Shown here in pieces: positions 2,662-29,356 of a stretch of DNA of 30,861 nucleotides. Each line of letters starts with the position of its first letter. Positions within the stretch are counted from its first letter, which is position 1. The notes beneath the pieces were generated by a model, which was not told the DNA's origin, did no database searches, and saw only the letters and a list, made by a program, of their open reading frames with translations. Made by a program: the position numbers and the translations under genes. This stretch comes from Patescibacteria group bacterium. GTDB taxonomy: Bacteria > Patescibacteriota > Minisyncoccia > Phycocordibacterales > JBBUBG01. The DNA is taken from assembly GCA_040384765.1 (NCBI GenBank), contig JAZKIQ010000003.1, positions 51,461-82,321 on the forward strand, given 5' to 3'.

Positions 2662-3339
2662 TTATGGTTTAATGACAATCCCCTTTCCTCCGCCATCTAT
2701 CACGGTAAGGCCGCGCGAAGCGCAAAACTCGTCGATTGCCCGAGCGGCACCAGGCCATTTCTTGAGCTCTTCAGGATTCTTGTACTCATCGAACACCATC
2801 ACACCACCAGGAACCACCTGATCAAAAAGCTCAGAGAGGCAGGTTTTGTACGAATCGTAGATATCGCAATCGATATGGAGAAACGCAATCGGCCCGATTC
2901 GCGCCTTCCACTCGGGAAGTGTTTTTTCAAAAGGGCCTTCAACAAGCTCAACCGACACTTTATTCATCGAGAGAAACCGGCCTACCATCTCCTTTGAGGT
3001 ATCGCGAAAGTTCTCCTTTTCCGCAACCTCCTTGATATCGTGCTCGGAAAGCGAAGGAAATCCGGCAAAGGTGTCGAATCCCCACACCTTTCTTTGCAAA
3101 GCAAGAGATGCAAGGATAAAGAGCGAACGTCCTTTCCATACTCCACACTCAACAACAGCGCCTTCGAGATCTTTGATTCGATCCATCTGGCGCACATAGA
3201 GAGCGACCTTGCGAATATTGCGAATGTCGAGAGGAAGCGTGCGCTCCTGACGCAAAATCCGTTTACCGAAAAGAGTAAAGTTACGAAGCCTCCAGCGTTT
3301 GGCAAGCTTTTTCTTCAGCGTAGGAATCGGTGAATACAT
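2662..3339 (-). CDS. TylF/MycF-family sugar O-methyltransferase
   Basis: GAVVECGVWKGRS, GFDTFAGFP, GPFEKTLP, IAFLHIDCDIYDS, PGGVMVFDEY, WPGAARAIDEF. Confidence 0.92.
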   Translation of the reverse strand: MYSPIPTLKKKLAKRWRLRNFTLFGKRILRQERTLPLDIRNIRKVALYVRQMDRIKDLEGAVVECGVWKGRSLFILASLALQRKVWGFDTFAGFPSLSEHDIKEVAEKENFRDTSKEMVGRFLSMNKVSVELVEGPFEKTLPEWKARIGPIAFLHIDCDIYDSYKTCLSELFDQVVPGGVMVFDEYKNPEELKKWPGAARAIDEFCASRGLTVIDGGGKGIVIKP

Positions 3340-3345
3340 AGCGAG

Positions 3346-4086
3346 CTATTTCATCCACGCAGAGAAATCTGCGAGAAACTGTCCGACGGCATGATCGGTT
3401 TTGTAATGACCGAACATCTTCTTAAAAATCGCGGGTGAGGCCGTAACGATATCAGCGCCAGCAAGCCCTGCATATTTTACATCAAGCGGCGTCCGAATAC
3501 TGCCTGCGATGATGCGCGCCTTGGGATAGTCGATCAAAAGATCAGTTGTTTCCACAAGAACGCTATTCGGATCGTAATCGTTTTGCTCGATCACACCTTC
3601 CATCTCGAGCTTTGTGCGCTCAGCGTCATATTTTTCCTCGGTGGCACCGTCACGCACACGATTATAAAAAAGACTCACAAACTGAGCGCCTGAGGCCGCA
3701 GCAGAGACAAGCTGCATCGGCGTCATGCATGCGGTGGCGTTTACGATGATGCCGCGATCTGAAAGTTCACGTATTACGGAGAGATAGTTTTCTCCTTTGT
3801 ACGAAATCGGGATCTTTATCGCGAGATGCTTGTATTTAAGAGCTTTGGAAAACTCGACGGCCTGCTTGACCATCTCCTTCTTATCGGTAGCAAACACCTC
3901 CACAGAAAGGGATGCTGTCTTTGAGTACTTTTTACAAAGCGCCACGATCTTCTTCATATGGGCAAGATAGTTGCCTTTTGGCTCCTTCGCCAGAAGCGAA
4001 GGGTTTGTGGTAACACCCTCAATATAGCCAGATTGGAACGCCTCTTCGATATCTGCGAGATTTGCCGTGTCGAGAAATAGCTTCAT
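3346..4086 (-). CDS. tal: Transaldolase family protein (small TalC/FSA-like class)
   Basis: MKLFLDTA start at ATG 4086 (the track start at 4122 is probably too long), GVTTNPSL, SVEV (Glu), Schiff-base IKIP, VNAT, AGSIR, C-terminal H-x-KTD..V.QFLADF. Confidence 0.88.
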   Translation of the reverse strand: MKLFLDTANLADIEEAFQSGYIEGVTTNPSLLAKEPKGNYLAHMKKIVALCKKYSKTASLSVEVFATDKKEMVKQAVEFSKALKYKHLAIKIPISYKGENYLSVIRELSDRGIIVNATACMTPMQLVSAAASGAQFVSLFYNRVRDGATEEKYDAERTKLEMEGVIEQNDYDPNSVLVETTDLLIDYPKARIIAGSIRTPLDVKYAGLAGADIVTASPAIFKKMFGHYKTDHAVGQFLADFSAWMK

Positions 4087-4158
4087 AGGTGGTATGGGAT
4101 AAGTAGGTTTTAAATCTATCACAGCAGATGAGGATTTTAAAGATCGTTTAGAGGTCCT

Positions 4159-4890
4159 CTACTTCTGGCCGTAATATTTTTCTTTACCGTGTTTCCGCAT
4201 CCAGTGCTTCTCCATGAGTTCCCGAGGAATTGGCTTTGGATCTCCAAGCGTGTGCATTGAAATCGCAATCGAGGCCACTTTCTCAAGTACTTCGGCCCGC
4301 GCCACGGTCGTTCGAGCATCAGGTCCCACGATGAACGGACCGTGTCCGTACACGAGCGCCGCAGGCATTTTCAGAGGATCGAGCTTTTCTGCAAGTATGC
4401 GCCCTGTATTCTCTTCGTATTCTGTTGCGATCTCTGAGGGCGTGAGCGTCCGAGTGACCGGGATCTCACCAAAAAACTCGTCCGCGTGAGTTGTGCCATA
4501 ACACGGAATCGACATGCCCATCTGACCAAACGCGACAGCTGATGGCGAGTGCGTATGCACAATACCGCCAATTTTTTCCCCAAAATGCTTGTAGAGGACC
4601 AAGTGCGTCGGGGCATCCGAAGATGGGGCGAATCCCGTTGGGTCAAGCCATTCACCAGTAGTAATATCCACCACGACAATCATGTCGGGCTCGAGTTTGT
4701 TGTACGGGACTCCAGACGGCTTTATAGCCATCCAGTTCTGCCAGCGCCCCGAAGCGTTCCCTTCTGTCTGAATGATGAGATTGCGATCCGCGAGCATGCG
4801 ATTCGCTTCGCATACCTCGGCGCAAAGACGATCGAGCGCGGGGGCATTTTCTCTCTGTACCCTTCGCATATCCGACGATCGTATCACCAA
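4159..4890 (-). CDS. araD: L-ribulose-5-phosphate 4-epimerase (class II aldolase/epimerase)
   Basis: GNAS, IKPSG, PSSDAPTH, GIVHTHS, GTTHADEFFGEIPVTR, HG, and the diagnostic C-terminus HWMRKHGKEKYYGQ. The start is uncertain (TTG 4890 or GTG 4887, after GAGGGGG). Confidence 0.9.
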   Translation of the reverse strand: MVIRSSDMRRVQRENAPALDRLCAEVCEANRMLADRNLIIQTEGNASGRWQNWMAIKPSGVPYNKLEPDMIVVVDITTGEWLDPTGFAPSSDAPTHLVLYKHFGEKIGGIVHTHSPSAVAFGQMGMSIPCYGTTHADEFFGEIPVTRTLTPSEIATEYEENTGRILAEKLDPLKMPAALVYGHGPFIVGPDARTTVARAEVLEKVASIAISMHTLGDPKPIPRELMEKHWMRKHGKEKYYGQK

Positions 4891-4902
4891 TACCCCCTCA
4901 AA

Positions 4903-6006
4903 TCAACGATCGATCATCGCGCGAATCTCAGTCTCAAGAAGCTTCCAATCAGGCGTGAAAAAGAGAGCTCGATCGTCGATGAAGATATCGCTTGATGGCT
5001 TGCCCAAAAATAGTTCGTGGAACTTCACTCCCCACGACTCAAGCTGTTTTTTGGTAAACATATACCCCTCTTCGTATGCGGACTTCCAATCGTTCTTGTG
5101 GCGGCCCATAAACCGAGCCGTAAAAAGATTGATCTGGTGGCCTTCATCGTACAGTTTATTTACTATCGCAATCGCCTCCTTGATCGGCTTGGCTTTAGCG
5201 TAGTCACCTTCTGTATTGGTACAGATCACGCCATCCAGATCAAAACTGATCCGTTTGCCGCGGAGCTTTTTTTCTCCTGCAAGGCGCGATGCAAGCTGAG
5301 GCATTTTCATCCTCGCTCCATCTTCGACAAGGTACGAGTCGCTATCCTCATCTTTCGTTGCAATCTCAATAATGACGGTGTCCTCGAGCCCACCACGCTG
5401 ATGCATCAACCCTTGCGGTATCGTATTAGAAACTCCTTCGCCAAGTTCAAAAAAACGATCCTCTCCGCGGCCAGCGCGCAAGCGAAGCAGGAGCTTCCCC
5501 GACTGGATATAGTAGCTTTCAAACTTGTTGCAGTGGAACTCAAGCGACGCATACGCCCCTTTTTTGACCACCATGCGTTTTGCGGAGTATCCGGCAGATG
5601 ATACGAGGGTTTCGATCTCGCCCCAATATTTGTCCCGGTGATCGGTTGGTGCAAAAGCGGTGCCGTATCTCCCTTTCGAATCTGCTGGGCCTGAAAAAAA
5701 GTAAACGCGTGACTGCTTCTTTGCAGTACATTCAATACTCTCTCCGGGTGCGACGGTGACGAGCGATTTTTCCGGCACCTTCGTCTTCCCTAAAGCAATC
5801 TCGCCGTGCTCTACATAAAATGTAGTCTCAAAATTACCGACGGGGACAAGTGCGCACTTTTTTCCACGATCAATCTCGGCAACCGAAAGCTCATACTCGG
5901 GCACTGAAACCACTTTCGTAAGATACCCCCACGACTTTTTCGCTCGGCGCGGTTTTGCGATGAGCTTATCGAGACTATTGATATCAAGTCCGTATTGAGC
6001 GGTCAT
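4903..6006 (-). CDS. Fusion protein: two cupin domains (phosphomannose/lyxose-isomerase-like) plus a C-terminal HAD phosphatase (capsule biosynthesis EcbF/BcbF-like)
   Basis: Start at ATG 6006, overlapping the kinase stop as ATGA. Repeated K-x-WG motif (KSWG, KYWG). The second cupin has SLEFHCNKFESYYIQSG...GLMHQ...EIAT. The C-terminal domain has ISFDLDGVIC, FTAR, GKP and FIDDR. Confidence 0.8.
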   Translation of the reverse strand: MTAQYGLDINSLDKLIAKPRRAKKSWGYLTKVVSVPEYELSVAEIDRGKKCALVPVGNFETTFYVEHGEIALGKTKVPEKSLVTVAPGESIECTAKKQSRVYFFSGPADSKGRYGTAFAPTDHRDKYWGEIETLVSSAGYSAKRMVVKKGAYASLEFHCNKFESYYIQSGKLLLRLRAGRGEDRFFELGEGVSNTIPQGLMHQRGGLEDTVIIEIATKDEDSDSYLVEDGARMKMPQLASRLAGEKKLRGKRISFDLDGVICTNTEGDYAKAKPIKEAIAIVNKLYDEGHQINLFTARFMGRHKNDWKSAYEEGYMFTKKQLESWGVKFHELFLGKPSSDIFIDDRALFFTPDWKLLETEIRAMIDR

Positions 6007-6959
6007 ATGAGTTTTTTTAATTGTGAGAATTTCGGCGGTTCGGTCCCCATCGTAGTCGTGGCAAGCGCAGCCCAACGATTCGCAAACAAAAGGTCCTCTG
6101 CGGTCGGCGGAAACTGGCCCATCGCAAGCGCAGCAAGAAAAGCATCTCCAGCTCCGACAGGATCAATAGCATCGACAGAGTGAGCGGGTGTCTCGAGATA
6201 TTCTCCTCGAATGAGAGCCGCGGACCCGAAAGCCCCGAGCTTCACAATCACCGATTGAATGGCGAGGCTCTCGGCAAGGAGCGGTAGCGTCTCTCGAACA
6301 GCATCGCAAGAGAACTCGGCAAACGCCGCTTTTGCCTCTGTCTCGTTGAGGCATACAAGATCTGTCTTTCGATACCAATCAAAATTTGGCTCGGTTCGTA
6401 CAACCTGCGAATCAACATACACCGGAAGCTTTTTCGCCCGCGCCATTTTTGTAATATACGTGGCCAGCTCTTTTGAAAGCAGCCCGGCGCGATAGTCAGC
6501 AATCAGTACTGCTTTGTGCTTTGAAAGCTCTCGCGCAATCGCTTGCTTGAGTGCTGCCCTTGTGGTGGCAGAGATGGAATCAGTGGACCCTCTATTCCAC
6601 CGAAACACCTTCAGGTCATCGACCACAAATCGTTCTTTCGTAATAATCTCGCGACCCTTTTGCACGAGAAACTTTTTACGAAGATTCGGGTGAGAAAATT
6701 GGGCGGCCTTCTTACTGTACTCATCATCGCCAAGAACCGAGAAAAAGGTAACCCTCGCACCGAGTTCGAGCATATTGCGCACCACAAGCCCCGCGCCGCC
6801 CCAGGTAAGGGCTGAGCGCTTATGAATACCTACGCTGTTGCCGGACTCGTGCGATCTGCCGCCAGAGTTGCCGTAGTGATAGAGGTCAACAATAAGATCA
6901 CCGATAACAAGTATCTTTTTTTCTGAGAACGCTTTGTTGTTAGGTGCCTTTTTCGCCAT
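6003..6959 (-). CDS. PfkB-family sugar kinase, similar to the HldE/RfaE kinase domain
   Basis: KILVIGDLIVDLY, GGAG.V..N...LGA, TKERF, ADY.AG, DPVGAGDAF. Likely start ATG 6959. Confidence 0.88.
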   Translation of the reverse strand: MAKKAPNNKAFSEKKILVIGDLIVDLYHYGNSGGRSHESGNSVGIHKRSALTWGGAGLVVRNMLELGARVTFFSVLGDDEYSKKAAQFSHPNLRKKFLVQKGREIITKERFVVDDLKVFRWNRGSTDSISATTRAALKQAIARELSKHKAVLIADYRAGLLSKELATYITKMARAKKLPVYVDSQVVRTEPNFDWYRKTDLVCLNETEAKAAFAEFSCDAVRETLPLLAESLAIQSVIVKLGAFGSAALIRGEYLETPAHSVDAIDPVGAGDAFLAALAMGQFPPTAEDLLFANRWAALATTTMGTEPPKFSQLKKLI

Positions 6960-7821
6960 CGTTTTCCATGCGGCCAATCAGATCTGTCGTCGAATATTTC
7001 ACTCCCGATGCCTGCATAACGATCGGGTACACCTTTACCTCGATATGATCCGGAATCTCATCTCGTTTGCGCACCTCTTCAGCTGTCCACTCGCCTCCTT
7101 TCACTACCACATCCGGTTCAATCCGCGCAATGACCTCTTTTGTATTGGTCTCGTCAAAAATGACAACCTCGTCCACACAATCGAGGTGTTCAAGAGCATT
7201 TTTTCGCTCAAGCTCCGAGTTGACTGGACGCTTCGGACCTTTCAGCGTCTTCGTGGCTCGATCAGAGTTGATGCCAACAACAAGCTTTCCCCCAAGCGAT
7301 TTGCAAAAGCGCAAAAGCTCAAGATGCCCCTTGTGCATGACGTCGAAAATACCGTTGGTGAAAATAATTTTTTCGGTATCATGCGCTTTCGTTTTCTCGA
7401 CGCGCCTGACATGCCGACCCTCGCCATAAGGAGTCTTAAGCCACTTATCGATGATGTTGAGATTTACCTCTTCTGGATTGACCCAGGAACCAAGGCAGAG
7501 GAGATTTGAATCGTTGTGTTCGCGCGTTTTCTCGGCTACATCGATACTGTGCACGAGCGATGCGCGAACATTCTCAAAGCGGTTGGCGACAATACTCATC
7601 CCGACGCCGGTGCCGCAGATAAGAATGCCGCGTGGGGCCTCCCCAGAATGAATCGCGTGAGCAACTGCGCGGGCATAATCGACATAATCAACCTTTTGGG
7701 ATTCGCTATGCGGGCCCATGTCGATCGGGAAATACCCTTGATCTATAAGGAATTTCTTGACGACCGCTTTCTGCGCTACACCGTTATGATCGGCGCCCAA
7801 TACGACGATTTTTTCTTTCAT
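6940..7821 (-). CDS. rpiB: Fusion protein: RpiB/LacAB sugar-phosphate isomerase plus RfaE-II-like nucleotidyltransferase
   Basis: N-terminal GADHNG, DYVDY, ICGTGVGMSIVANR, EHNDSNLLCLG, GRH.RR. C-terminal FTNGIFDVMHKGH, VGINSD, KGPKRP, PDVVVKGGEW, STT. Start at ATG 7821. Confidence 0.9.
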   Translation of the reverse strand: MKEKIVVLGADHNGVAQKAVVKKFLIDQGYFPIDMGPHSESQKVDYVDYARAVAHAIHSGEAPRGILICGTGVGMSIVANRFENVRASLVHSIDVAEKTREHNDSNLLCLGSWVNPEEVNLNIIDKWLKTPYGEGRHVRRVEKTKAHDTEKIIFTNGIFDVMHKGHLELLRFCKSLGGKLVVGINSDRATKTLKGPKRPVNSELERKNALEHLDCVDEVVIFDETNTKEVIARIEPDVVVKGGEWTAEEVRKRDEIPDHIEVKVYPIVMQASGVKYSTTDLIGRMENDGEKGT

Positions 7822-7828
7822 TGATTCC

Positions 7829-7857
7829 ACGATACAGAGGAACTCTCCAAGCGTCAA
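7829..7857 (-). promoter_or_regulatory. Sigma70-type promoter, probably leaderless, for the rpiB-fusion operon
   Basis: TTGACG, 17 nt spacer, TATCGT, then 7 nt to ATG 7821; no Shine-Dalgarno sequence. Confidence 0.6.
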
Positions 7858-7896
7858 CGAAAGGAAAAGGTGCATCGCGAGATGCACCTTCGACAG

Positions 7897-8631
7897 CTAC
7901 AGGATCCGCGTTACGCTCCCCATGAGGGCAGCGTGGTCGGATACACCAAACTGCATGCGAACATTCGAAACGAGATACGGCCCCCTGCTCCAGATACCGT
8001 CTACGAGTGTGCGCAGGCCGCTCACGCGATGCCGCTCGGGGTCGATGCTTGTGTCGCACTCCTTTGGCACAGCATCGGCTCCCCACCTCGTGATCTCTGC
8101 CCAGATCTCGCCGCCCCGGGGTGTATTGAAATCCCCACAAAGGATAAACTCCTCGCGAAGAGCAAGATGCTCGAGAAGTTTCCGGGCATCGCGCCGCTGG
8201 TGGTCATCCGGCTTTCCATCAGGCACCCACGTGAAATGGGTCGTCCCAACTCGATAGACCATCCCCTCCTTGGTGATAGTGCAGGAAACGAGTACTCTCC
8301 CTTCGGTCTTGCGGCGGGACTCGGGCGTAGTCGAATCAAGCGGTAGTACAAAAGAGCTGTTGGCGAGATAGTAAAACGGTGCCTCCCTTTGGAGCGAAAG
8401 CTCCGCGCGAGCGAGAATTGCAACACCGATCGTAAGGAGACCCTCTGGCCTCCGATGGATGGTCATCGGTGCAAACTGCTGGTGCGGAAACAGGTCTCTC
8501 CACCGCATGAGATCGATCTCGAACACCTCCTGAAGGCAAACCAGATCACACCGTGTTTCCTGCAAAAATCGGTCCACATCCCGAAGGTTGTTGCGACAAT
8601 CGATATTAAGCGATCCAAACCAAAGTGGCAT
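7897..8631 (-). CDS. Endonuclease/exonuclease/phosphatase (EEP) family protein
   Basis: SLNI, DLVCLQEV, GVAILAR, TTHF, ILCGDFN, LVDGIW, SDHAAL. Strong SD (GGGAGGG) upstream of the ATG. Confidence 0.9.
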   Translation of the reverse strand: MPLWFGSLNIDCRNNLRDVDRFLQETRCDLVCLQEVFEIDLMRWRDLFPHQQFAPMTIHRRPEGLLTIGVAILARAELSLQREAPFYYLANSSFVLPLDSTTPESRRKTEGRVLVSCTITKEGMVYRVGTTHFTWVPDGKPDDHQRRDARKLLEHLALREEFILCGDFNTPRGGEIWAEITRWGADAVPKECDTSIDPERHRVSGLRTLVDGIWSRGPYLVSNVRMQFGVSDHAALMGSVTRIL

Positions 8632-8736
8632 ATCTTTCCCTCCCTTCTTTCTGCCCTACTCTCGACCGAACCTATCACGCACCGAGTGCGCTGTCGACCG
8701 GTGGCGAGCGGCACAAACTGTGCTATTGTCATCCCC

Positions 8737-9912
8737 ATGAAAGCGCTCACCTGGCGACTCAATAATATCTCCCTCTTTCTCAAAGCGGGAGCGACTGCCC
8801 TCGCAAGCCGCCGCCATCGGAAATTTTCGGGAATACCCCGAACGGTCATTATAGTTCAGGGGGCAAAAATGGGTGACATGGTATGCACCACTCCGGTATT
8901 TCGAGCCACAAAGGAAGCATACCCTTCATGTCGCGTGGTCGTTGTGGGAGACACAGTTAACGAAAAACTACTTGAAGGGCACCCTCATGTTGATCGCTAT
9001 ATTGTGTGGCAGGGCTCCTTTTCTGAAATGGCGACAATCCTTGAGAATGAACAAGCAGATGCGGGCATTCTCATTCTTCCTTCACTGCTTGGGCTCGCAC
9101 TCCTTCTCGAAGCCAAGGTTCCTTTTATCATAGCACCACGTGTTCTGGGTGGAAGTTCTCCCTACGAAACGCGCACCTACAAGCTGTTGACGGCGTTCGT
9201 CACCACGGCGCCTCACCACTTTGATGCATATGCGCCCCGTGAATATCTGCGCCTCCTCGAACCGCTCGCCATTTTCACCGAAAATACAAAAAAACATCTC
9301 ACCTACCCAAAAACATCACTCGAGAGTGTCCGGGAGAAACTCGCACAAAAAGGAATCGATTTTGATCGAGATCTCATAGCGGGGATCGGCCCTTCAGTAG
9401 GCGGAGATAGAGCAAAACGATGGGCCCCGGAAAAATTTGCCACGGTAGCGCACGGCCTCATTGAACGCGGAGCCAAGGTGGTGGTTATTGGGAGCGGCAG
9501 GGACAAAGAAGATATCGAGGAGATGATGAACACCCTCGTACACGAACCGCGCGCAGTGAACCTGCTTGATGCACTAACCCTCGCGGAGCTCAAAGCTTTC
9601 ATCTCAAAGCTGTCACTCTATATAAGTGCAGATACGGGCCCCATCTATATTGCCGAAGCGTTTGATACTCCCACGATCGATATTGTCGGACCCGTAAAAG
9701 AACAGGTACAGCCCCCTCGCGGAGCAAATCATCGCATCGTGATGGCCGCTCGCGCGAGCGGAGTGATGGGCGTACTCGACAACATGCCAAGTGACAGAAG
9801 AGAGCTCCGCCGCCAGAGTGAAGAGATCACACCAGGGATGGTGCTTCACGAAGTAGACGATCTTCTCTCAACGCTGCCGCTTACGACGTCGCTTTTTCCA
9901 TCTCTCGAATAA
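8737..9912 (+). CDS. Glycosyltransferase family 9 (heptosyltransferase-like)
   Basis: KMGDMVCTTPVFRATKEAYP, HPHVD, AKRWAPEKF, ISADTGPIYIAEAFDTPTIDIVGP. The real start is likely ATG 8737; the track start at 8389 overlaps the EEP gene. Confidence 0.9.
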   Translation: MKALTWRLNNISLFLKAGATALASRRHRKFSGIPRTVIIVQGAKMGDMVCTTPVFRATKEAYPSCRVVVVGDTVNEKLLEGHPHVDRYIVWQGSFSEMATILENEQADAGILILPSLLGLALLLEAKVPFIIAPRVLGGSSPYETRTYKLLTAFVTTAPHHFDAYAPREYLRLLEPLAIFTENTKKHLTYPKTSLESVREKLAQKGIDFDRDLIAGIGPSVGGDRAKRWAPEKFATVAHGLIERGAKVVVIGSGRDKEDIEEMMNTLVHEPRAVNLLDALTLAELKAFISKLSLYISADTGPIYIAEAFDTPTIDIVGPVKEQVQPPRGANHRIVMAARASGVMGVLDNMPSDRRELRRQSEEITPGMVLHEVDDLLSTLPLTTSLFPSLE

Positions 9913-11293
9913 CTATCTGGAGTGTTCGCTCGCTCGCTTTTCCATCGAGAAGGTAGCACGCTTCCTTGCGCATGCGCTCTCGTTTATCCGCATCGAGTGA
10001 AGGGTTGTTGAAATAGTCTGTAAGGGCAGTGCGCAACTCGGGAAAAGAGTACGCTTCCTTTATAGCACCCGTGTCGAGGACCTCTCTGAAATGCTCAAAG
10101 TCGGCAAAGCGCCGGATCGAACGGCGAAGCGGTCTTTTCGCATAACCATCAAAGGGAGCAGCCACGAGCGGGCGATCGAAAAGCGCTGCTTCAAGAAACA
10201 CGGTGCTGTACACGCACATCACTACCTCTGCATAGCGAATGAGATTGAGAAAAATATTGCCGTCAAGAAGCGTATCCCAGCTTTTTGTATCGTAGTAAAA
10301 CACATATGGATCATCGGCGAGCCGTGCAAACTTTGCCTCATCAAAAGCCCGATCTTTACTACGGCTTCCCAGATACGGCCTCACCACCAGTTTTACATCA
10401 GGACCAAATGCCCCCTCTTTTACCCAACCAAGAATCTCCTCGATAATGTCAGGCTCATCCGGGCAGTAGGCGCTTCCTGATACGTACAAAATATATTTGC
10501 CGCTTGAAAGCGCAGGGAGGTGCTTTGCAAGCTCCTCGCGAGGCATATAGGCATCCTTTGAAATAAAATAATCAAAATGCTGGTAGCCCGTCACCTCTAC
10601 CGCCTCCGGATCGTACCCCTGAAACCGAATCGCATGATCACGCACCTGTGGTGAAGGGACCAAAAGAAGATCGGACTGAAAGGGAAGGTTGTACTTATCA
10701 ATATGATCCCAGCCAGATGGCATAGCAACCGAGCGGACGCCTTGGAGCCTTGCCTCACGAATTAAATACGCATCAAACAGTCCGTACACATGGGTGCCGA
10801 ACACGACCTTCGGACTATATTTTTTGAAAAGATCAGCAAAAGGACGCTCTGGATTTATGCGAGCGTGGAGATACGGAACCAATTTTTTGCGGATCATGGG
10901 AACTGTCTTTCCCAGAAAGGCGAGCGCCATGCGCACCGGCGCAAGAAGCCTATTCCCTACTGCTGGAGGATCGTCTTGCCGCATCCCCATTGTAGTAAGG
11001 ATATTTGTAGTGTTGGTATACAGGAGATATGCATACAAAAAGCGAAAAAGCCGCTGCAGCACTGTGCGCGGATTGGGAACATCTGCGATCTCCAGAACAA
11101 ACTGATCTTTCGAAAGTCCCCCGAACAGATACTCGTACTTTGGGATATCACGCTTGCGCATAAGGACGACAAACCGAACCTCGGGGTGCGTGCGCCCATA
11201 CGCCTTGCACTGATCCCAAAAACCTCCAGGGAAAAGAAAGAGGTTGCGCAGAACCGTATGTGCAGAAAAGCTTATAAAGATCGTTTTTTTCAT
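9881..11293 (-). CDS. GT-B protein, CDP-glycerol glycerophosphotransferase-like / candidate ulosonate transferase
   Basis: MPSGWDHIDKY, SDLLLVPS, VTGYQHFD, LVVRP, YSTVFLEAALFDRP, DGKASER. The C-terminal half is typical of TagF/sialyltransferase-like GT-B folds. Confidence 0.7.
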   Translation of the reverse strand: MKKTIFISFSAHTVLRNLFLFPGGFWDQCKAYGRTHPEVRFVVLMRKRDIPKYEYLFGGLSKDQFVLEIADVPNPRTVLQRLFRFLYAYLLYTNTTNILTTMGMRQDDPPAVGNRLLAPVRMALAFLGKTVPMIRKKLVPYLHARINPERPFADLFKKYSPKVVFGTHVYGLFDAYLIREARLQGVRSVAMPSGWDHIDKYNLPFQSDLLLVPSPQVRDHAIRFQGYDPEAVEVTGYQHFDYFISKDAYMPREELAKHLPALSSGKYILYVSGSAYCPDEPDIIEEILGWVKEGAFGPDVKLVVRPYLGSRSKDRAFDEAKFARLADDPYVFYYDTKSWDTLLDGNIFLNLIRYAEVVMCVYSTVFLEAALFDRPLVAAPFDGYAKRPLRRSIRRFADFEHFREVLDTGAIKEAYSFPELRTALTDYFNNPSLDADKRERMRKEACYLLDGKASERTLQIVIREMEKATS

Positions 11294-11301
11294 GAGGGAA
11301 G

Positions 11302-12495
11302 CTATTTATACAAGAGAAAGATCTTCTCAGCGAATTCAATCAAAAGAGAGTCCTCTGAACCAGACTGCTCGGTCAAGGGCGATGCCATGAGCGACTGCGT
11401 ACCAGAAGAGCGCCATTTCCAGGGAAACCGCCCCCCGGGAACACGGCGCCGAAGCCGTTCGAGAACTCTCGCAAGAAAAAGATCTACCGTTCGAGATGCA
11501 AAGATGGGATCTTGTCCTCCGCCATCGACTTTTTTGTACCACCAGAGCCGAAAAGGACCCTTCCGCTGCTTTCCGGAAAGACCCAACGCTCGAAGAAATT
11601 TATTCTGCATAGGCAAAAAGGCAAACTCTTTCTGTCCGAGCGGGACACGACCGTCTGCCTTTTTGGCGATAACTGTCAGCATGCGCGGGTCGGATAGATC
11701 ACGCGAAACGATCGTATACCCATGTCGTGCAAACAGAAGCGAAAGTGAATCAATGCTGAACGAATGAAGGTGTGGAAAGAAAAGTAACTGCAGAAGCGAA
11801 ACCTCATGCCACACGTCCGGCACAGAAAGCGCAAAGAGATCACCCGGCTTTTGGATTTTTGATGCAGCGTCAATGAGCGAGCCGGGATTTTGAATATGCT
11901 CAAGTACATGGTTCGAAAGAAGTGCGATGCTTTTGTCACCCGCATCGGTTCGTATCTTTTGCAAAAAATGTTCAAAGCCACCTCCATACACAGGAACATC
12001 CGCATAGGTGGCGGCATGGCTCGCGCGGTGAGGGGAGGCTTCTATTCCAGCGAGAGAACGATACCCTGCATCCTTAAGCAGTCGAAGGGATTCGCCATAC
12101 CCGCATCCCACATCGCATACAAACGTATCCTTTGGCACCTCAGAATCAAGAAAAATACGAAGAGCCGGATTAGGTTCTATCTCCCCTTTCCCAAGAAGAC
12201 CCCGATGGCCGGTGCGGGCGACATCCCACGTACCGCTCGCATAGAAACGGTCAACCCACGCCTGGGCAGGCCGATCGATATAGCCGACATAGTTGCAGGC
12301 GGAACACCAGCCAATCCGAATCGTGCATCCATCGGCTCTCCCACGAAGGGTGGCGAGCACCCGTAGACGCGCACCATCAGCAGGACAAACTGCCTGTATC
12401 TCATACGGCACATCACGATCCATCACCACGGTGCGAAAACCCGCGAGATTGAGAGGCTTATCGATAACAAAACCACGAGAGAGAGTCTTAGACAT
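11302..12495 (-). CDS. Class I SAM-dependent methyltransferase with an N-terminal Cys-containing (zinc-ribbon-like) segment
   Basis: CPADG...WCSAC, CDVGCGYG, GIEAS, NHVLEHIQNP, LSVPD, HLHSFS. Likely start ATG 12495; the track uses TTG 12510. Confidence 0.85.
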   Translation of the reverse strand: MSKTLSRGFVIDKPLNLAGFRTVVMDRDVPYEIQAVCPADGARLRVLATLRGRADGCTIRIGWCSACNYVGYIDRPAQAWVDRFYASGTWDVARTGHRGLLGKGEIEPNPALRIFLDSEVPKDTFVCDVGCGYGESLRLLKDAGYRSLAGIEASPHRASHAATYADVPVYGGGFEHFLQKIRTDAGDKSIALLSNHVLEHIQNPGSLIDAASKIQKPGDLFALSVPDVWHEVSLLQLLFFPHLHSFSIDSLSLLFARHGYTIVSRDLSDPRMLTVIAKKADGRVPLGQKEFAFLPMQNKFLRALGLSGKQRKGPFRLWWYKKVDGGGQDPIFASRTVDLFLARVLERLRRRVPGGRFPWKWRSSGTQSLMASPLTEQSGSEDSLLIEFAEKIFLLYK

Positions 12496-23638: not shown

Positions 23639-24469
23639 TTACCACTCCCTCGAACGAGCAATCGAGTCAAGCAGAACTTCGTGGTACTGCCCGTTCGAGA
23701 ACATGCGACCAGGCTTCGTCCGATCCTTCTTGAAACCGTAGTTGATTGGGTTCCCCTCGAGATCGGTCGCCTTCCCGCCCGCCTCCTCGATGATCAAGTG
23801 ACCAGCAGAGGTGTCCCACGGAGTATCTCCCGTGAAGATCGTTCCCACGAAGACACCGCGCGCGACGAGCATGTCGAGGTACCCCATCGAGGCGATCATG
23901 ACCGACCGGAGGCCACTCTTGCCGAGCAGCTTTCCGACATCGAACATGTCGAGGCCGGGCACATGAGGAGCGGTGGCGAGCCCTACTGCCGGCTTTCCTT
24001 TCGATCCATCGCCTGGCATACATTCCGACACTCGAATGCAATGGGTATTCGTTCGGGTCCGAACGAAGGCCCCCTCTCCCCGAACTGCGTAGTACAGTGC
24101 GTCAGCGTACGGATTGCACACCACGCTCATCTGGGGTTTCCCCTCGAAGAGCAGAGCCGCCATGAACGTGCTTGCCGGAAGGCCCCAGGTGAAGGGCAGG
24201 GTGCCGTCGATCGGGTCGATCTGGAGCTGCCACGGGCTTTCGGCCCGGACGCTCTCCTCTTCGCCGAGGATGTCGATCCCGGGCGCATCTCTTTGCACCT
24301 CGGAAATCACAAACCTGTTCACCTCCCCATCAGCTGTGGTGACAGGAGACTGGTCCTCCTTAAACGTCGTCGTGAAGCCCGAGGTAAAGCGCTTCTCGAT
24401 GATCAATCCAGCAGCTCGAGCGATCCCGAGGAATCTCCCGCGACTTAGCGGAAAATCAGGAACCGTCAT
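23639..24469 (-). CDS. Inositol monophosphatase family protein (SuhB/HisN/CysQ-like)
   Basis: SPVTTAD, LGEE, IDPIDGT, WDTSAGHLIIEEAGGKATD; purine-rich SD upstream. Confidence 0.92.
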   Translation of the reverse strand: MTVPDFPLSRGRFLGIARAAGLIIEKRFTSGFTTTFKEDQSPVTTADGEVNRFVISEVQRDAPGIDILGEEESVRAESPWQLQIDPIDGTLPFTWGLPASTFMAALLFEGKPQMSVVCNPYADALYYAVRGEGAFVRTRTNTHCIRVSECMPGDGSKGKPAVGLATAPHVPGLDMFDVGKLLGKSGLRSVMIASMGYLDMLVARGVFVGTIFTGDTPWDTSAGHLIIEEAGGKATDLEGNPINYGFKKDRTKPGRMFSNGQYHEVLLDSIARSREW

Positions 24470-24534
24470 CGCACTCTCCCTTCTCTCGACAACGAGGCTT
24501 TCGTTTGAAAATCTCGTTCTGTGTATCTAGTGAT

Positions 24535-24563
24535 TTTTTACCATTTAAATTCAAGGTAGTCAA
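24535..24563 (-). promoter_or_regulatory. Putative sigma70 promoter of the inositol monophosphatase gene
   Basis: TTGACT, 17 nt spacer ending in TGG, TAAAAA. Confidence 0.45.
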
Positions 24564-24578
24564 TGGCTACTTTTGACG

Positions 24579-24615
24579 ACATAAAACCCCTGATCAAAGA
24601 TCAGGGGTTTTATGT
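24579..24615. terminator. Perfect 17-bp inverted repeat, likely terminator after neuB
   Basis: ACATAAAACCCCTGATC-AAA-GATCAGGGGTTTTATGT, 12 nt past the neuB stop. Confidence 0.8.
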
Positions 24616-24627
24616 TGCATCTCCTAC

Positions 24628-26187
24628 CTAGTCGAGGTTTTCTCCGAGATGATCGAACTGATGGCGGCCCCAGTTTACGAGGCGCGTCTTGCGCTCATCC
24701 CGAGGAATTTTTGATACAGCCCGATCGATATAAAACGAGTCGCTGCCAACCGCTGTAGTTGAGATCTCTTCAAGAACGGCACCCGTCTCTGTACCAAACG
24801 CATGCCAAGTGCCACGCGGTACCCAGAGCGTGTCGCCAGGATAGAGGATCTTCTTACGGCCTTCAATCTCTGCGAGCAATATGCCCGAAAGCACATAGAA
24901 GGTCTCGTCTTTCTGTTTGTGATAATGGGTTGGGTTCCACTGACCGGGCGTCTGAATGATCAGCTTCTTCGCATACTCGCGGTTGAAACATTCAATGATG
25001 GTGCAGCCGTACTGCTCAAACTGAGAAAGCCCGTAGTGGTGCGAAAGCTCTACGGCAAACTCATGGCCGATATGGATCTGTGCATTGTTGAGCATCCCTT
25101 TCGCGGTACGAATTGAGCCGTACACAATATCTTTCTTTGTCGGACGCGGTGGCTCAACCTTTGCCGGAAGCGCTTCGTTCACGCCGTAGTCCTGGGCAGC
25201 AATATAGCCTTCCTGAAATCGCCCTGAGCGCATCTGGTCTTGCTGCAGTGGAAATGCAAAGTAGATATCTTCACGCTTGATCACCTCCCCCGCCCTGATC
25301 TCGCGCTTTGCCCATACACCACGCATGAGTGAGCGAAGGTCCTCTTTTTCTTTATCCGAAATCTCTCGCTCTCCTTCGTGGCCACAGAGTGCCACTGCAT
25401 GCTTTTGTGCGTCCACCCACGCGCGCACCTGAGCAGGTGTTGCTGAGTAGGCATTGAGCTTGATCGTGTCGGTCGCGACGCCTACGTGCTTTTCAAAAAT
25501 ACGAGCACCCTTTGCGTAGGCAAGCCCCACGATCGTCGTGTCAGAGGGATCCTCGTGTGTCGAAAATCCGATCGTTACACCTGGATAGCGCTTCTTCATC
25601 ACCTCGATCTGATTGAGGTGAAACTTCTCCTCAGGGGTTGGGTAGATTGCAACACAGTGCATGAGGGCAAACTGCACTGCACGATGCTCGAGAAAGCTTA
25701 CGATCCGGTCGATCTCTACCATGCGGAGACCGCCCGTTGAAACGATCATCGGCTTACCTGCCTCTGCAGCACGCGCGATAAGAGGCCAGTCATGCGCTGA
25801 ACAGCTTCCGATTTTAACGATATCGACGTCCAGCTTTTCAATAAGATCAACCGACGGCTCATCGAAGGGTGTCACCATAGTAAGCAAACCTTGCGCACGA
25901 GTTTCATCGAGGAGCTCCTTAAACTGGTCGGCCGAAAGACGCGTCGAGAGAAAGCGAGGGATATGCTTGTTTTCTGTGCTTCCCTTGAAATCAGGATGGA
26001 TAAAGGTGTCGAGATCGCGAAACTGCAACTTTACTGCTGCGCGGATTCCCTTCTCACGCGCGAGCGCCGCCATCTCACGAATGATCAGTTTTCCATGTTC
26101 GACAGAACCCTGATGGTTGTTGGCCATCTCAAATACAAAAAGATTCTCAAAATCAAAGATATGGTTATCTGGAGGAAATGTGGCCAT
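24628..26187 (-). CDS. neuB: NeuB-family (N-acetylneuraminate synthase-like) PEP-dependent ulosonate synthase, with a SAF domain and a C-terminal cupin (D-lyxose-isomerase-like)
   Basis: FEMANNHQG, AVKLQ, TPFDE, KIGS, IVSTGG, MHCVAIYP, GFSTHE, EKH; SAF region RGVWAKREIRAGEVI; cupin YAKKLI...HYHKQKDETF...WHAF...EEIST. Likely start ATG 26187. Confidence 0.9.
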   Translation of the reverse strand: MATFPPDNHIFDFENLFVFEMANNHQGSVEHGKLIIREMAALAREKGIRAAVKLQFRDLDTFIHPDFKGSTENKHIPRFLSTRLSADQFKELLDETRAQGLLTMVTPFDEPSVDLIEKLDVDIVKIGSCSAHDWPLIARAAEAGKPMIVSTGGLRMVEIDRIVSFLEHRAVQFALMHCVAIYPTPEEKFHLNQIEVMKKRYPGVTIGFSTHEDPSDTTIVGLAYAKGARIFEKHVGVATDTIKLNAYSATPAQVRAWVDAQKHAVALCGHEGEREISDKEKEDLRSLMRGVWAKREIRAGEVIKREDIYFAFPLQQDQMRSGRFQEGYIAAQDYGVNEALPAKVEPPRPTKKDIVYGSIRTAKGMLNNAQIHIGHEFAVELSHHYGLSQFEQYGCTIIECFNREYAKKLIIQTPGQWNPTHYHKQKDETFYVLSGILLAEIEGRKKILYPGDTLWVPRGTWHAFGTETGAVLEEISTTAVGSDSFYIDRAVSKIPRDERKTRLVNWGRHQFDHLGENLD

Positions 26188-26266
26188 GGATATAGTTATT
26201 CGTTCGGGCGCGAGATGCCTCGTGCGTATCAATTCTAAGCTCTCTTATCTAGTCTTTGTATCATGC

Positions 26267-26295
26267 GTATTACCACACTATTCCCCTCTATGCAA
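26267..26295 (-). promoter_or_regulatory. Putative promoter of neuB
   Basis: TTGCAT, 17 nt spacer ending in TGG, TAATAC. Confidence 0.4.
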
Positions 26296-26307
26296 TCCCT
26301 TTTGCCA

Positions 26308-26335
26308 GAGAGAAAGAAGCGGGGAGTCCACCCCG
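26308..26335 (-). terminator. Putative terminator after the kinase gene
   Basis: On the minus strand CGGGG-TGGACT-CCCCG, followed by CTTCTTTCTCTC. Confidence 0.5.
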
Positions 26336-26374
26336 GTATTCTCGATAACTCGACGGCAGTAGGTATGGTTTCAA

Positions 26375-27448
26375 CTACTCTTTTCCAAGATGTTTCTCAA
26401 TCCAAGGTAGGTCAAGAAATGAAAGAAGCTCCGGGAGCATCTCGATGCGTCGCAAAAGATGCTTTTCGATTTTTTGCGTAAGCTCAGGGAGACGGTTTCC
26501 CTCAAAGTGGTGCCTTCGGAGGCTCCGAAGCACGCGCATCATATCCCAGCGGATCGCAGCAGGCAGTATGAGCTCGTACTCCTCTGGAAGCAGCGGATTT
26601 TCCTTGTGATACGCTTTCAAAAAAGTACGCACCTGCTCTTCAGTCTGCGCATGCTTCCCAGCCTCATACCCTTTCCAGCCGAGAGAAAGGAGCGCGGCGC
26701 CAATATCCCACAGCGCTGGCCCTGTTCCCATCTGATCGATATCGATGAGCCCGCGAAGCGATCCATCCGGCGAATAGAGGCCATTGCCCATATGAAAATC
26801 ACCGTGACGAACTGTTTGCATACGCACACCATCGTCAAAAGGCACCCTATCGAGATATTCTATCTGCTTATCGATAAAAGAGATCTTCTCACGAACCAAA
26901 GCGCATACCAGGGGCAACTCGCACTCATGCAAAGAAAGAAACTGCTCGCGGTGAACTGGGCCGTAGAGCGCACGCGATTCTTCGTACGGTTTTTCTTGCG
27001 GAATCTGTTCTGAAATAGTCTGCACTTCTTCGGGATGCTCGCGAAGATAGAGAGCCCCCTGCGCATGGAAAAGACCGAGTGCTCGCCCAGCTTCATGAGA
27101 AAAAGGTTCAGAAAATTCGTACGGCACACCAGGGATATGATCCATCAGCACAAAGAAACGCTCCCCCGCCTCTTCTGAGAGCAATGCTACAAACTGTCCC
27201 ATATGTGTACGATATACCCTGGGAAGCGGCACACCGCGAGCGCGAAGCTCTTCGCTCACCGCATATGCCTTCTCGTACGGCGCACGCGACTGATGCCAGT
27301 CTGACTGTTTGAACACATACTGCTTGCCGCTTTGGTCAGTACACAAAAACACGCTACTTGAAACAGCGTCACCGCCAAGAGGCCTGACCGAAACCATCTC
27401 TATCCCATATGAGGTAGCAATAAAGCGTTTGAGCGCATTCTCGTCCAT
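26375..27448 (-). CDS. Aminoglycoside phosphotransferase / type II homoserine kinase-like small-molecule kinase
   Basis: YVFK (ATP-binding Lys), LGLFH, Brenner motif HGDFHMGN, LIDID, WDIG. Likely start ATG 27448. Confidence 0.85.
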   Translation of the reverse strand: MDENALKRFIATSYGIEMVSVRPLGGDAVSSSVFLCTDQSGKQYVFKQSDWHQSRAPYEKAYAVSEELRARGVPLPRVYRTHMGQFVALLSEEAGERFFVLMDHIPGVPYEFSEPFSHEAGRALGLFHAQGALYLREHPEEVQTISEQIPQEKPYEESRALYGPVHREQFLSLHECELPLVCALVREKISFIDKQIEYLDRVPFDDGVRMQTVRHGDFHMGNGLYSPDGSLRGLIDIDQMGTGPALWDIGAALLSLGWKGYEAGKHAQTEEQVRTFLKAYHKENPLLPEEYELILPAAIRWDMMRVLRSLRRHHFEGNRLPELTQKIEKHLLRRIEMLPELLSFLDLPWIEKHLGKE

Positions 27449-27471
27449 TGGGTGCAGACTACCATGCACTT

Positions 27472-27520
27472 ATAAAAACATGAACGGGTCCGGCTGTGCC
27501 GAACCCGTTCATGTTTTTAT
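27472..27520 (-). terminator. Long hairpin/terminator after the oxidoreductase gene
   Basis: An 18-bp perfect arm ATAAAAACATGAACGGGT plus an inner CGGC/GCCG stem. The one mismatch becomes a G-U pair on the minus-strand transcript. Confidence 0.75.
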
Positions 27521-27535
27521 CCTCTCTACGGTTCT

Positions 27536-28624
27536 CTATTTTGGAAAATGCATATCCCACAAAGAGTAGTCTACGGGTACTGTTTTCTTCTCCGCAGCTG
27601 ACTTGTGAGCCGCAGTCAGGAGAAGCGACGAGTAGATGCCATTCTTGAGATGAATTGGTGATGATTCATAGGCAATCTCGCCCGAGGCGATCCCCATCAT
27701 ATGCTTCATCTCTCGAGCAAACTCTTCAACGCGTGTTTTCTCAAGAGGATGCTTCTCTGCCGGAACACCCTTCTTCTCAAACTGCACCTCGTCAGCAGTT
27801 TTTGACACATCGTTGAGCCAGGTAATATGTGCGCTTTCAAACTGAAGCTCTACCGCTTTTCGTTTTGTTGGGGTGGTTACCACATCCTGAGCAATCGTAC
27901 CCAGCAGACCCTTTTCGGTAGTAACGTTTGCGAGGAAAATGCTGTCGTATGTTGCTCCCTTATGATCGACATACTGAATCGAGGCCGAAACATCAGCCGG
28001 GCGGCCCATCCCTGCAACCTCGGCAAAATGTATCCAGAGGTTAATGGCATGCGAGTGTTCGCCACCTGCGCCTCCACCGCGCTTCCAATAGCCAAGGTAG
28101 GTATCCTCCGGACCCGAGAGCCATGGATGAGCTGCGAAAATATTCTGCCAATGGCTGCGTACTTCTGAGGTGAGGTTTACGAGAGCACCAATATCGCCAG
28201 TGCCCATTAGCTTGCGAGTAAGCTCTGAGTTTGCTGCAAGCAAGTGGTTGAAGCCGACAAGAACTTTCGTTTCCGGATGACTCTTTACCGCCTGGAGAAA
28301 GGGCCCAAGGTCGTCCGTTGGAGAGCAGAGCGGCTTCTCGATCATAAGCACCTTCGGACGATTAGCACTTTCAAGGACCTTAATGGCAAGCGCGAGGTGA
28401 CTATCAGGAGGCGTCCCGATAATCACGATATCAGCCTGCTCATCTGATGGACCGCCAAGCCTTACTTCGTTGTTCCAGGCGCCGTAGCGCTTTGCGTAAA
28501 TTTCAGGAAAACGGGCAAGGGCTTCAGGAGAAAGATCCTCCACGGACACCGCACAGCCGTATTCAACCGCCGCACGAGAATGATGAATACCTATTGAACC
28601 AGCCCCAATAATACGAATGTTCAT
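27536..28624 (-). CDS. Gfo/Idh/MocA-family NAD(P)-dependent oxidoreductase
   Basis: IIGAGSIG, IIGTPPDSH, IEKPL, VGFNH, GGGAGGEHSHAIN. Confidence 0.9.
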   Translation of the reverse strand: MNIRIIGAGSIGIHHSRAAVEYGCAVSVEDLSPEALARFPEIYAKRYGAWNNEVRLGGPSDEQADIVIIGTPPDSHLALAIKVLESANRPKVLMIEKPLCSPTDDLGPFLQAVKSHPETKVLVGFNHLLAANSELTRKLMGTGDIGALVNLTSEVRSHWQNIFAAHPWLSGPEDTYLGYWKRGGGAGGEHSHAINLWIHFAEVAGMGRPADVSASIQYVDHKGATYDSIFLANVTTEKGLLGTIAQDVVTTPTKRKAVELQFESAHITWLNDVSKTADEVQFEKKGVPAEKHPLEKTRVEEFAREMKHMMGIASGEIAYESSPIHLKNGIYSSLLLTAAHKSAAEKKTVPVDYSLWDMHFPK

Positions 28625-28635
28625 ACGAGTTAAAA

Positions 28636-29355: not shown

Positions 29356-29356
29356 A

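Follow-up and report, generated by a model that had tools for sequence, protein, structure and literature searches.

The question raised by a 30,861-nucleotide stretch of DNA from a Patescibacteria group bacterium (contig JAZKIQ010000003.1; the whole stretch is called the window below) is whether five tightly packed minus-strand genes at 7821..3346, some of pentose-phosphate type and others of nucleotide-heptose type, encode a single pathway. A sequence-only reading had proposed that they do, and that the pathway leads to a nucleotide-linked heptose or octose without the isomerase GmhA. Pfam and NCBIfam scans of the window returned the five co-directional genes with the domains named in that reading, and the overlaps among the first three were also seen: Gene A and Gene B overlap by 20-38 nt, and Gene B and Gene C overlap in ATGA. 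The cluster proved to be conserved. Because the same genes recur together in 20 cellular and approximately 55 viral loci, the five-gene arrangement is far beyond chance. The five genes most likely form one self-contained cassette, which would generate a sugar 1-phosphate by a '1,omega-bisphosphate' logic and then join it to a nucleotide without GmhA. Judging from the sequences, we favor, at slightly better than an even chance, the synthesis of an ADP-linked heptose or octose independently of GmhA, whose place a cupin resembling mannose-6-phosphate isomerase (PMI) would take.

Enzymes encoded by the five genes and their genomic context

Gene A (6940..7821, minus strand) encodes a fusion of RpiB (approximately residues 1-147) with a nucleotidyltransferase resembling HldC and domain II of HldE (approximately residues 150-293), as indicated by Pfam, NCBIfam and PDB matches. 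The RpiB part scored 156.6 bits against PF02502 and 144.8 bits against TIGR01120, above the equivalog cut-off of 138.65; its best PDB match was 3he8 (1.4e-32), it aligned also to 1nn4, and the Cys, Asp-His and Arg motifs are kept. The nucleotidyltransferase part, in which an HxGH motif is present, matched PF01467 with 74.2 bits, and its best family was rfaE_dom_II (TIGR02199), where a score of 131.8 bits missed the cut-off of 181.5. Its best PDB match (5x9q, 3.5e-23) is deposited as a putative cytidylyltransferase and is, we assume, HldC. In an alignment of cassette homologues, 13/13 had the two parts fused in a single open frame, and none of the 13 departed from the DH, CGTG, REHND and GRHxR motifs. 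Gene B (6003..6977, minus strand; start TTG 6977 or ATG 6959) encodes a PfkB-family sugar-phosphate kinase with a GAGD motif, nearest to HldA and domain I of HldE. Its best family was rfaE_dom_I (TIGR02198; 157.7 bits, below the cut-off of 345) and its best PDB match was HldA 4e84 (5.8e-16).

Gene C (4903..6006, minus strand; start ATG 6006) encodes a bicupin fused to a small HAD phosphatase. The 390-aa open reading frame (ORF) of this gene begins too early, and the form in the protein database has 367 aa (P0001). We recovered 116 database relatives, comprising approximately 45 full-length bicupin-HAD fusions at 44-61% identity as well as shorter bicupin-only forms. An AlphaFold2 model (predicted local distance difference test score 88.2) shows the bicupin and the HAD domain. 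In a 22-member alignment of relatives, the N-terminal cupin is degenerate and without conserved metal ligands, and the second cupin has a set of strongly conserved motifs resembling the C-terminal domain of type II PMI. Eleven of the 22 members matched PF01050 and 10 of the 22 matched the D-lyxose isomerase family PF07385, all weakly. The language-model neighbors of Gene C were mostly PMI-C-terminal-like cupins, many of them viral, and a Foldseek search with the model returned generic bicupins only (oxalate decarboxylase, seed proteins), which was uninformative on function.

The HAD domain of Gene C is not of the GmhB type: it scored 33.2 bits against TIGR01689 (cut-off 162) and 22.3 bits against HAD-SF-IIIA (cut-off 44.6). 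Its best PDB match was 9iqw (7e-16), with a further match to 1xpj. The aligned stretch of 9iqw reads identically to RB69 gp51, to which the Gene C HAD is 36% identical (9e-17). In a 2026 paper (PMC13326640), RB69 gp51 is equated with AfhF of phage HY126, an Mg-dependent arabinofuranose-1,5-bisphosphate 5-phosphatase that leaves the 1-phosphate. The Gene C HAD is closer, at 47-53% identity, to forms from cyanophages and to forms fused to SIS_2 domains than to AfhF-type proteins (35-42%); it is 51% identical to a HAD fused to a GmhA-type SIS_2 domain (P0113), and its subfamily occurs also fused to two kinds of nucleotidyltransferase.

Gene D (4159..4890, minus strand) encodes an AraD-like L-ribulose-5-phosphate 4-epimerase. 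It scored 241.4 bits against NF006047, just below the cut-off of 257, and aligned end to end with E. coli AraD (1jdi, 1.1e-51), keeping the GNxS, IKPSGV, PSSDxPTH, HTHS, TTHAD, HGPF and YYGQ motifs of that protein, which presumably supply the catalytic Asp and Tyr, the Zn-binding His and the phosphate site. The product is apparently a genuine pentulose-5-phosphate 4-epimerase. Gene E (3346..4122, minus strand; probable start ATG 4086, alternative 4122) encodes a small transaldolase, with 135.9 bits against PF00923 (TAL_FSA) and 126.7 bits against TIGR00875, where the cut-off of 245.95 was missed. It is closer to solved transaldolases (1vpx, 1.2e-28) than to fructose-6-phosphate aldolase (1l6w, 1.7e-11) and keeps the Schiff-base Lys, the SIR phosphate site and a Glu and Phe pair that we take to be transaldolase-type, Gln and Tyr at the same positions being taken as the mark of fructose-6-phosphate aldolase. 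The two fusions, isomerase with phosphatase and RpiB with nucleotidyltransferase, tie steps of the putative pathway together.

The source genome comprises 822,710 bp in 12 contigs and is rated 99.83% complete. Across it, neither gmhA (TIGR00441) nor hldD (TIGR02197) had a match at E<=0.001, and a scan of the window ORFs of at least 150 aa turned up no SIS, GmhB-type or HldD-type gene; the absence of GmhA, GmhB and HldD from the window, as claimed earlier, was thus borne out and extends to the genome for gmhA and hldD. Contig C5 carries another rpiB, this one unfused, within a row that also includes gap, rpe and two transketolase halves (tktN and tktC), so the cassette RpiB is an extra copy. 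A class II fructose-bisphosphate aldolase gene lies near this row, which has no transaldolase. Housekeeping copies of rpiB, rpe and transketolase thus exist apart from the cassette, and Gene E is the sole TAL_FSA match of the genome. In a sample of 201 high-quality Patescibacteria genomes, TAL_FSA was found in 41, this genome counted, and 160 were without it; 0/3 genomes of the same order gave a match. Transaldolase does not belong to the standard gene set of the lineage. A search of a sample of 400 other Patescibacteria for Gene C matched single cupins or HAD parts but nothing that was full-length or included both cupins. In this sample, then, the cassette is rare; its occurrence is also patchy, as expected of transferred accessory DNA.

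Recurrence of the cassette in cellular genomes and phages

A pattern scan with one genome per species yielded 22 cellular loci, which were searched by tblastn with all 31 window protein queries; of 100 ORFs near the cassettes that this left unexplained, the 71 of at least 110 aa were scanned with Pfam. Counts refer to the 20 loci with both a cupin relative and a kinase. The kinase was thus present in 20/20 and the nucleotidyltransferase in 19/20. Transaldolase was found in 18/20 loci, and the two without it (L044 and L050) stop at a contig edge. RpiB was recovered from 16/20 loci, being absent from L047, L052 and L053 and not visible in L043, and AraD from 9/20. A HAD of the window type occurred in 11/20 loci and another, HAD_2-type phosphatase in five further ones. 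GT9-family glycosyltransferase genes lay in the fetched flanks of 14/20 loci, which upholds the suggested link to surface glycans, and a SIS isomerase was seen in 1/20 (L055). By record title, the loci belong to members of the Candidate Phyla Radiation (CPR), namely Saccharibacteria, Parcubacteria, Doudna-, Taylor-, Kaiser- and Nealsonbacteria, and to Acidobacteriaceae, Bryobacterales, Dehalococcoidaceae and one 'archaeon' metagenome-assembled genome (MAG). The Acidobacteriaceae cassette is flanked by Wza/Wzz-like export genes and by GT9 and MurJ-like flippase genes.

Five of the cassette-bearing genomes were checked for further transaldolase and gmhA genes. The Parcubacteria genome has the cassette transaldolase alone, the Doudnabacteria genome adds one long ordinary copy, the two Acidobacteriaceae genomes have four transaldolase matches apiece, and the Bryobacterales genome accounts for seven match rows, among which are several fragments of split genes. 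The two CPR genomes are without gmhA, and the three large genomes carry gmhA-like genes elsewhere.

Some of the cellular loci have peculiarities of their own. L040 and L041 are near-identical, as are L048 and L049, and the frames of L046 and L054 are split. In the pair L040 (Acidobacteriaceae MAG) and L041 (titled Acetobacteraceae), the transaldolase branch lengths were 0 and 0.048; since the cassettes are near-identical, one of the two taxonomic labels may be a binning error. A triple fusion of bicupin, HAD and transaldolase in L040, suggested by a script, was rejected after translation revealed that a stop codon separates them. The kinase, cupin, HAD or transaldolase is in two pieces in L046 (Bryobacterales) and L054 (Acidobacteriaceae), which could reflect pseudogenes or long-read indel errors. 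Two CPR loci have a NUDIX hydrolase gene inserted in the cassette (L036, 2662-3150; L045, 2726-3235), whose product may hydrolyze nucleotide sugars or act in proofreading; an AAA_33 kinase-like gene adjoins it in L036 and is also found in L044.

The bicupin alignment found no relative when viral contigs were scanned with it. The alignment of the 13 RpiB-nucleotidyltransferase fusions yielded 61 IMG/VR loci, 55 of which matched both parts, with 54 full-length fusions and one locus (L157) in which the parts are unfused. Among these 55 loci, several of which are cut at contig ends and several of which are identical copies, we counted the kinase in 50, the cupin in 52, the HAD in 46, AraD in 48, the transaldolase in 51 and GT9 in none. 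The usual viral order is [RpiB-NT][kinase][AraD][cupin][transaldolase][HAD], where NT denotes the nucleotidyltransferase. The cassette transaldolase was the only one in each of five phage records checked (5/5), with no second, ordinary copy.

A smaller relative of the cassette was found in cultured T4-like cyanophages (P-SSM2 PSSM2_309-312; P-TIM68 gp191-195) as a four-gene core of nucleotidyltransferase, PfkB kinase, HAD (47-53% identical) and a single cupin. Unlike the cassette, this core lacks transaldolase, RpiB and AraD; the phages carry TalC elsewhere, and it belongs to the ordinary clade. No paper characterizing the four-gene set was found in the literature accessible to our search. Many T4-like phages have the label 'phosphoheptose isomerase' on a HAD phosphatase homologue of 112-132 aa and not on a SIS isomerase; examples are L174 4495-4839 (P-SSM2 PSSM2_311), L070 6384-6722 (P-TIM68 gp195), L173 7709-8095 (RB69 gp51) and L172 3956-4354 (VR5 gp045). 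The adjoining cupin is annotated 'cysteine dioxygenase', and both labels are probably propagated misannotation.

We then compared the transaldolases in quick trees, with support from the Shimodaira-Hasegawa-like approximate likelihood ratio test (SH-aLRT) only; rows from the same-gene duplicates L062, L064, L065 and L066 and from the split genes of L046 and L054 were left out. The 18 cellular cassette transaldolases formed one group (SH-aLRT 89) and shared a long branch with two further sequences. With 40 distinct phage cassette sequences added, all cassette transaldolases fell on one side, separated from 36 ordinary ones (support 97). A last tree, built with three cyanophage TalC sequences and every second phage row but without the long-branch row L069, placed 38 cassette sequences and the two sisters against 35 ordinary transaldolases and the three TalC (SH-aLRT 98.8). 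The transaldolase clade is thus cassette-specific and apart from both ordinary transaldolases and cyanophage TalC, as far as these alignments go. The proposal that the enzyme is dedicated to the cassette has gained from this result and from its presence in 18/20 cellular and 51/55 viral loci. The SPF motif beside the catalytic Phe is changed to S[LIV]F, with loss of the Pro, in the cassette and sister transaldolases, and the subclade of Gene E has an insertion of approximately 22 residues.

The two sisters come from an Acidobacteriaceae genome (G404:C75) and a CPR genome (G018:C4), and both lie in glycan-locus gene sets with NTP_transferase, SIS_2, GmhB-type HAD, transaldolase and GHMP kinase genes. 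The acidobacterial set is at L101 (G404:C75:85000-100000) 5792-8453 and 11018-12001, and the CPR set at L102 (G018:C4:392000-406000) 7120-10801. According to the lincomycin literature, the octose enzymes LmbO/N/K/R/P belong to these same five families, and we call the sister sets Lmb-like. The acidobacterial sister transaldolase had at least 8000 protein relatives, all at E<=1e-10, and the best 120 of the 8000 come from soil and are largely metagenomic.

Proposed pathway and competing explanations

We infer every chemical step of the pathway proposed here. The cassette RpiB and transaldolase would draw on pentose-phosphate intermediates and yield a ketose phosphate of D-threo C3/C4 configuration: starting from erythrose 4-phosphate this would be sedoheptulose 7-phosphate, and starting from ribose 5-phosphate, as for LmbR, an octulose 8-phosphate. 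The PMI-like second cupin of Gene C would convert this ketose phosphate to an aldose phosphate, the HldA-like kinase would phosphorylate the anomeric position, the cupin-fused HAD would take off the distal phosphate, and the RpiB-fused HldC-like domain would produce the nucleotide sugar, probably ADP-linked. The adjacent GT9 would then transfer the sugar to a surface glycan, which the products of downstream methyltransferase genes may tailor. The AraD-like epimerase would be an optional module that alters a C4 configuration. The sequence-only reading had left the isomerization to either a cupin or RpiB. Transaldolase products and RpiB substrates have opposite configurations at C3, and on these stereochemical grounds RpiB is an unlikely isomerase for the extended ketose and was rejected in that role; the cupin appears the better candidate. 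The full set of L-ribulose-5-phosphate 4-epimerase motifs in AraD suits a reaction at the pentose level better than one on an octulose.

Several features argue for a C7 or C8 sugar. Kinase, nucleotidyltransferase and linked GT9 alike are of heptose type, and the transaldolase is integral to the cassette, divergent, kept even beside ordinary transaldolases and nearest to relatives in Lmb-like gene sets. The D-threo C3/C4 configuration of transaldolase products also suits a PMI-like cupin. Within this reading the octose is put forward tentatively, and slightly ahead of the heptose, since the LmbR reaction calls for ribose 5-phosphate, which a fused RpiB could supply; the heptose, for which transaldolase and RpiB would just raise sedoheptulose 7-phosphate and the cupin would replace GmhA, is held a shade more doubtfully. 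The octose version, if we may entertain it as a minority possibility, would be a second, non-homologous solution to the lincomycin trick, in which a C3 unit and RpiB-supplied ribose 5-phosphate lead to an ADP-octose that GT9 enzymes would place in the surface glycans of CPR bacteria and Acidobacteria, with phages spreading the pathway. On that view, octoses would be common constituents of microbial glycans that have been overlooked, and the Lmb-like sets of soil Acidobacteria would represent a parallel GDP-octose route.

The pathway logic is known from the routes to ADP- and GDP-heptose, GDP-octose and UDP-arabinofuranose; the enzyme set is new. The ADP-heptose pathway has the same order of ketose phosphate isomerase, anomeric kinase, distal phosphatase and nucleotidyltransferase, its HldA/HldE-I and HldC/HldE-II enzymes are nearest to the cassette kinase and nucleotidyltransferase, and the cassette likewise has an adjacent GT9. 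It differs in using a SIS isomerase and HldD, both missing from the cassette genome, where the candidate isomerase is a cupin. The cassette further has a HAD of another subfamily and adds its own transaldolase, RpiB and AraD, and all heptose-specific NCBIfam cut-offs are missed. The lincomycin GDP-octose pathway resembles the cassette in having a dedicated transaldolase inside a nucleotide-sugar gene set; LmbR takes a C3 unit from fructose 6-phosphate or sedoheptulose 7-phosphate and attaches it to ribose 5-phosphate. The lincomycin set, which lies in an antibiotic cluster, has a SIS isomerase, a GHMP kinase and an NTP_transferase, whereas the cassette has a non-homologous cupin, a PfkB kinase and an HldC-like enzyme and lies in a surface-glycan island or a phage.

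The phage route to UDP-D-arabinofuranose (arabinose-5-phosphate isomerase, AfhE and AfhF, in RB69 gp55, gp52:53 and gp51), which serves arabinosylated 5-hydroxycytosine DNA, shares with the cassette its step logic and HAD subfamily. The order of arabinose-5-phosphate isomerase, kinase, phosphatase and nucleotidyltransferase is given in PMC13326640, with background in PMC6024577. In this phage route the isomerase is a SIS protein and AfhE is a fusion of APH-like and NTP_transferase-like domains, unlike their counterparts in the cassette. It is also without transaldolase, RpiB, AraD and cupin, and its product goes onto DNA, in contrast to the GT9 in the glycan island. A pentose product was absent from the sequence-only reading, and this route gives it a characterized precedent.

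The main competing explanation, which we regard as possible and on balance doubtful, is that the cassette itself makes a nucleotide-linked pentofuranose by this phage logic. The cupin would turn a pentulose 5-phosphate (D-xylulose 5-phosphate, D-ribulose 5-phosphate from RpiB or, in loci with AraD, L-ribulose 5-phosphate) into an aldopentose 5-phosphate, which C1 phosphorylation, C5 dephosphorylation and nucleotidylation would convert to a lyxo, L-ribo or arabino product, RpiB and transaldolase merely feeding the pentose-phosphate pool. This is the sole competing explanation that gives AraD a natural substrate: AraD has every catalytic and phosphate-site motif of its E. coli counterpart, which makes it very likely that the cassette acts on a pentulose 5-phosphate, and the gene is found in 48/55 viral and 9/20 cellular loci. 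The cassette nevertheless has no rpe, though xylulose 5-phosphate would be the direct precursor, and its kinase and nucleotidyltransferase are of HldA/HldC type and not of AfhE type. The HAD is nearest among solved structures to 9iqw/RB69 gp51 (AfhF), as a pentofuranose would predict, but nearer still to the cyanophage and SIS_2-fused forms. An RpiB above its equivalog cut-off, a D-lyxose isomerase match in 10 of 22 cupin homologues and the sole-copy transaldolase of the 5/5 phage records, as for a supply gene, are in keeping with a pentose product, whereas a divergent transaldolase clade kept beside ordinary copies would be unexpected of a mere supply gene. GT9 is linked in 14/20 cellular loci, and to our knowledge the characterized GT9 members are all heptosyltransferases.

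Two further explanations assign the accessory enzymes a lesser part. An ordinary hexose might be activated through a 1,6-bisphosphate, bypassing phosphomutase, with transaldolase, RpiB and AraD as supply; fructose 6-phosphate could go to mannose 6-phosphate via the cupin, or psicose 6-phosphate to allose 6-phosphate via RpiB, and E. coli RpiB accepts allose 6-phosphate. The nearest sugar-enzyme family of the cupin is the PMI C-terminal domain and a TylF-like methyltransferase gene follows the cassette, both as this explanation would have it, yet the conserved transaldolase, RpiB and AraD would be left without a pathway role, and the substrates indicated by the kinase, nucleotidyltransferase and GT9 are of heptose type. 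We consider a hexose very improbable. We give hardly any credence to the idea that housekeeping pentose-phosphate genes lie by chance beside an ordinary ADP-heptose set with its isomerase elsewhere. Gene E is indeed the only TAL_FSA of the genome. However, the genome has a separate rpiB-rpe-tkt operon and no gmhA, so the refuting case named earlier, in which these would be its only pentose-phosphate genes and a gmhA elsewhere would supply ordinary heptose 7-phosphate, does not apply. In addition, 160/201 Patescibacteria do without transaldolase, the gene combination recurs across phyla and phages with a cassette-specific transaldolase clade, and RpiB is fused in frame to the nucleotidyltransferase in 13/13 homologues.

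The preference for an ADP-linked heptose or octose has to be set against a number of observations that weigh on the other side. AraD would have no natural role in a heptose or octose scheme, and the closest characterized relative of the HAD acts on arabinofuranose 1,5-bisphosphate. The nucleotidyltransferase part of Gene A and the kinase of Gene B fall under the heptose-specific cut-offs of NCBIfam, and for the GT9 gene of the window the NCBIfam heptosyltransferase models all scored below their own cut-offs. This genome, genome G401 and the 5/5 phage records have no transaldolase besides that of the cassette, which leaves room for a plain supply role; the enzyme also seems dispensable for the core, given that the cyanophage core lacks it along with RpiB and AraD. 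The transaldolase trees contain no LmbR sequence, and because of the many near-copies and the identical viral loci, the locus counts overstate independence.

No paper on the gene combination or on a cupin-type sedoheptulose-phosphate isomerase was found in a search that largely excluded subscription journals, and to that extent the earlier description of the pathway as undescribed still applies. Nucleotide-sugar pathways set which sugars reach cell surfaces and, in phages, DNA or host envelopes. The cassette would be an undescribed donor route in which a cupin takes the place of GmhA and enzymes of pentose-phosphate type are built in, and its hosts are ultra-small CPR bacteria, whose surfaces are almost unstudied, abundant soil Acidobacteria and dozens of large environmental phages. 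If the product were an octose, or a pentose of unusual kind, glycan biology would gain a new monosaccharide. The results would also correct the widespread labels 'phosphoheptose isomerase' for the HAD and 'cysteine dioxygenase' for the cupin. The five proteins are small and soluble-looking, which makes the proposal testable in vitro.

Transcription unit and the surrounding glycan island

Upstream of the Gene A start codon, a consensus scan of the minus strand placed a hairpin at 7891-7866 followed by a promoter-like site at 7857-7829 (together 7829..7891). The hairpin has an 11-bp stem and comes after an EEP-family gene, and the promoter-like site ends 7 nt before the ATG of Gene A. With both elements just upstream, ATG 7821 is the probable start of the transcription unit, and the 7-nt spacing suggests a leaderless start for Gene A. 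The promoter call rests on consensus matching, and as promoter-like sites in the region were no more numerous than in shuffled controls, it is a weak one. The EEP-family gene (7897-8631) was considered as a cassette member and rejected, as it has no counterpart at other loci and the hairpin lies between it and the cassette.

The whole window is a glycan island with glycosyltransferase and methyltransferase genes. The GT9-family glycosyltransferase gene (8737..9912, plus strand; PF01075 74.9 bits, cut-off 22) is transcribed divergently from the cassette. The 507-aa ORF at 8389-9912 on the plus strand overlaps the opposite-strand EEP gene, and the cassette-linked GT9 homologues (49-51% identity) begin at residue 117-118 of this ORF, so the true start is probably ATG 8737. 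Its product is the likely user of the cassette product. Directly downstream of Gene E on the same strand lies the gene of a TylF-like O-methyltransferase (2662..3339, minus strand; PF05711 84.2 bits), which possibly tailors the sugar; homologues lie directly 3' of the transaldolase in L037 (47% identity) and L043 (66%). A second GT9-family gene was found at G000:C3:84860-85546, approximately 2.5 kb past the end of the window, so that the island reaches beyond it.

A second probable sugar pathway is encoded on the minus strand at 23639-30022. It includes an inositol-monophosphatase-family gene, a NeuB-cupin fusion (24628-26232), an APH-type kinase (26375-27469), a GFO/IDH oxidoreductase, a CTP_transf_3 cytidylyltransferase and a His_Phos_1 phosphatase, and from these families it looks like a route to a CMP-activated ulosonic acid (KDN/Kdo-like). 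The cassette itself has no APH-type kinase. The NeuB-fused cupin is 30% identical to the second cupin of Gene C, and NeuB-cupin homologues lie directly 3' of the cassette in the viral loci L107 and L128.

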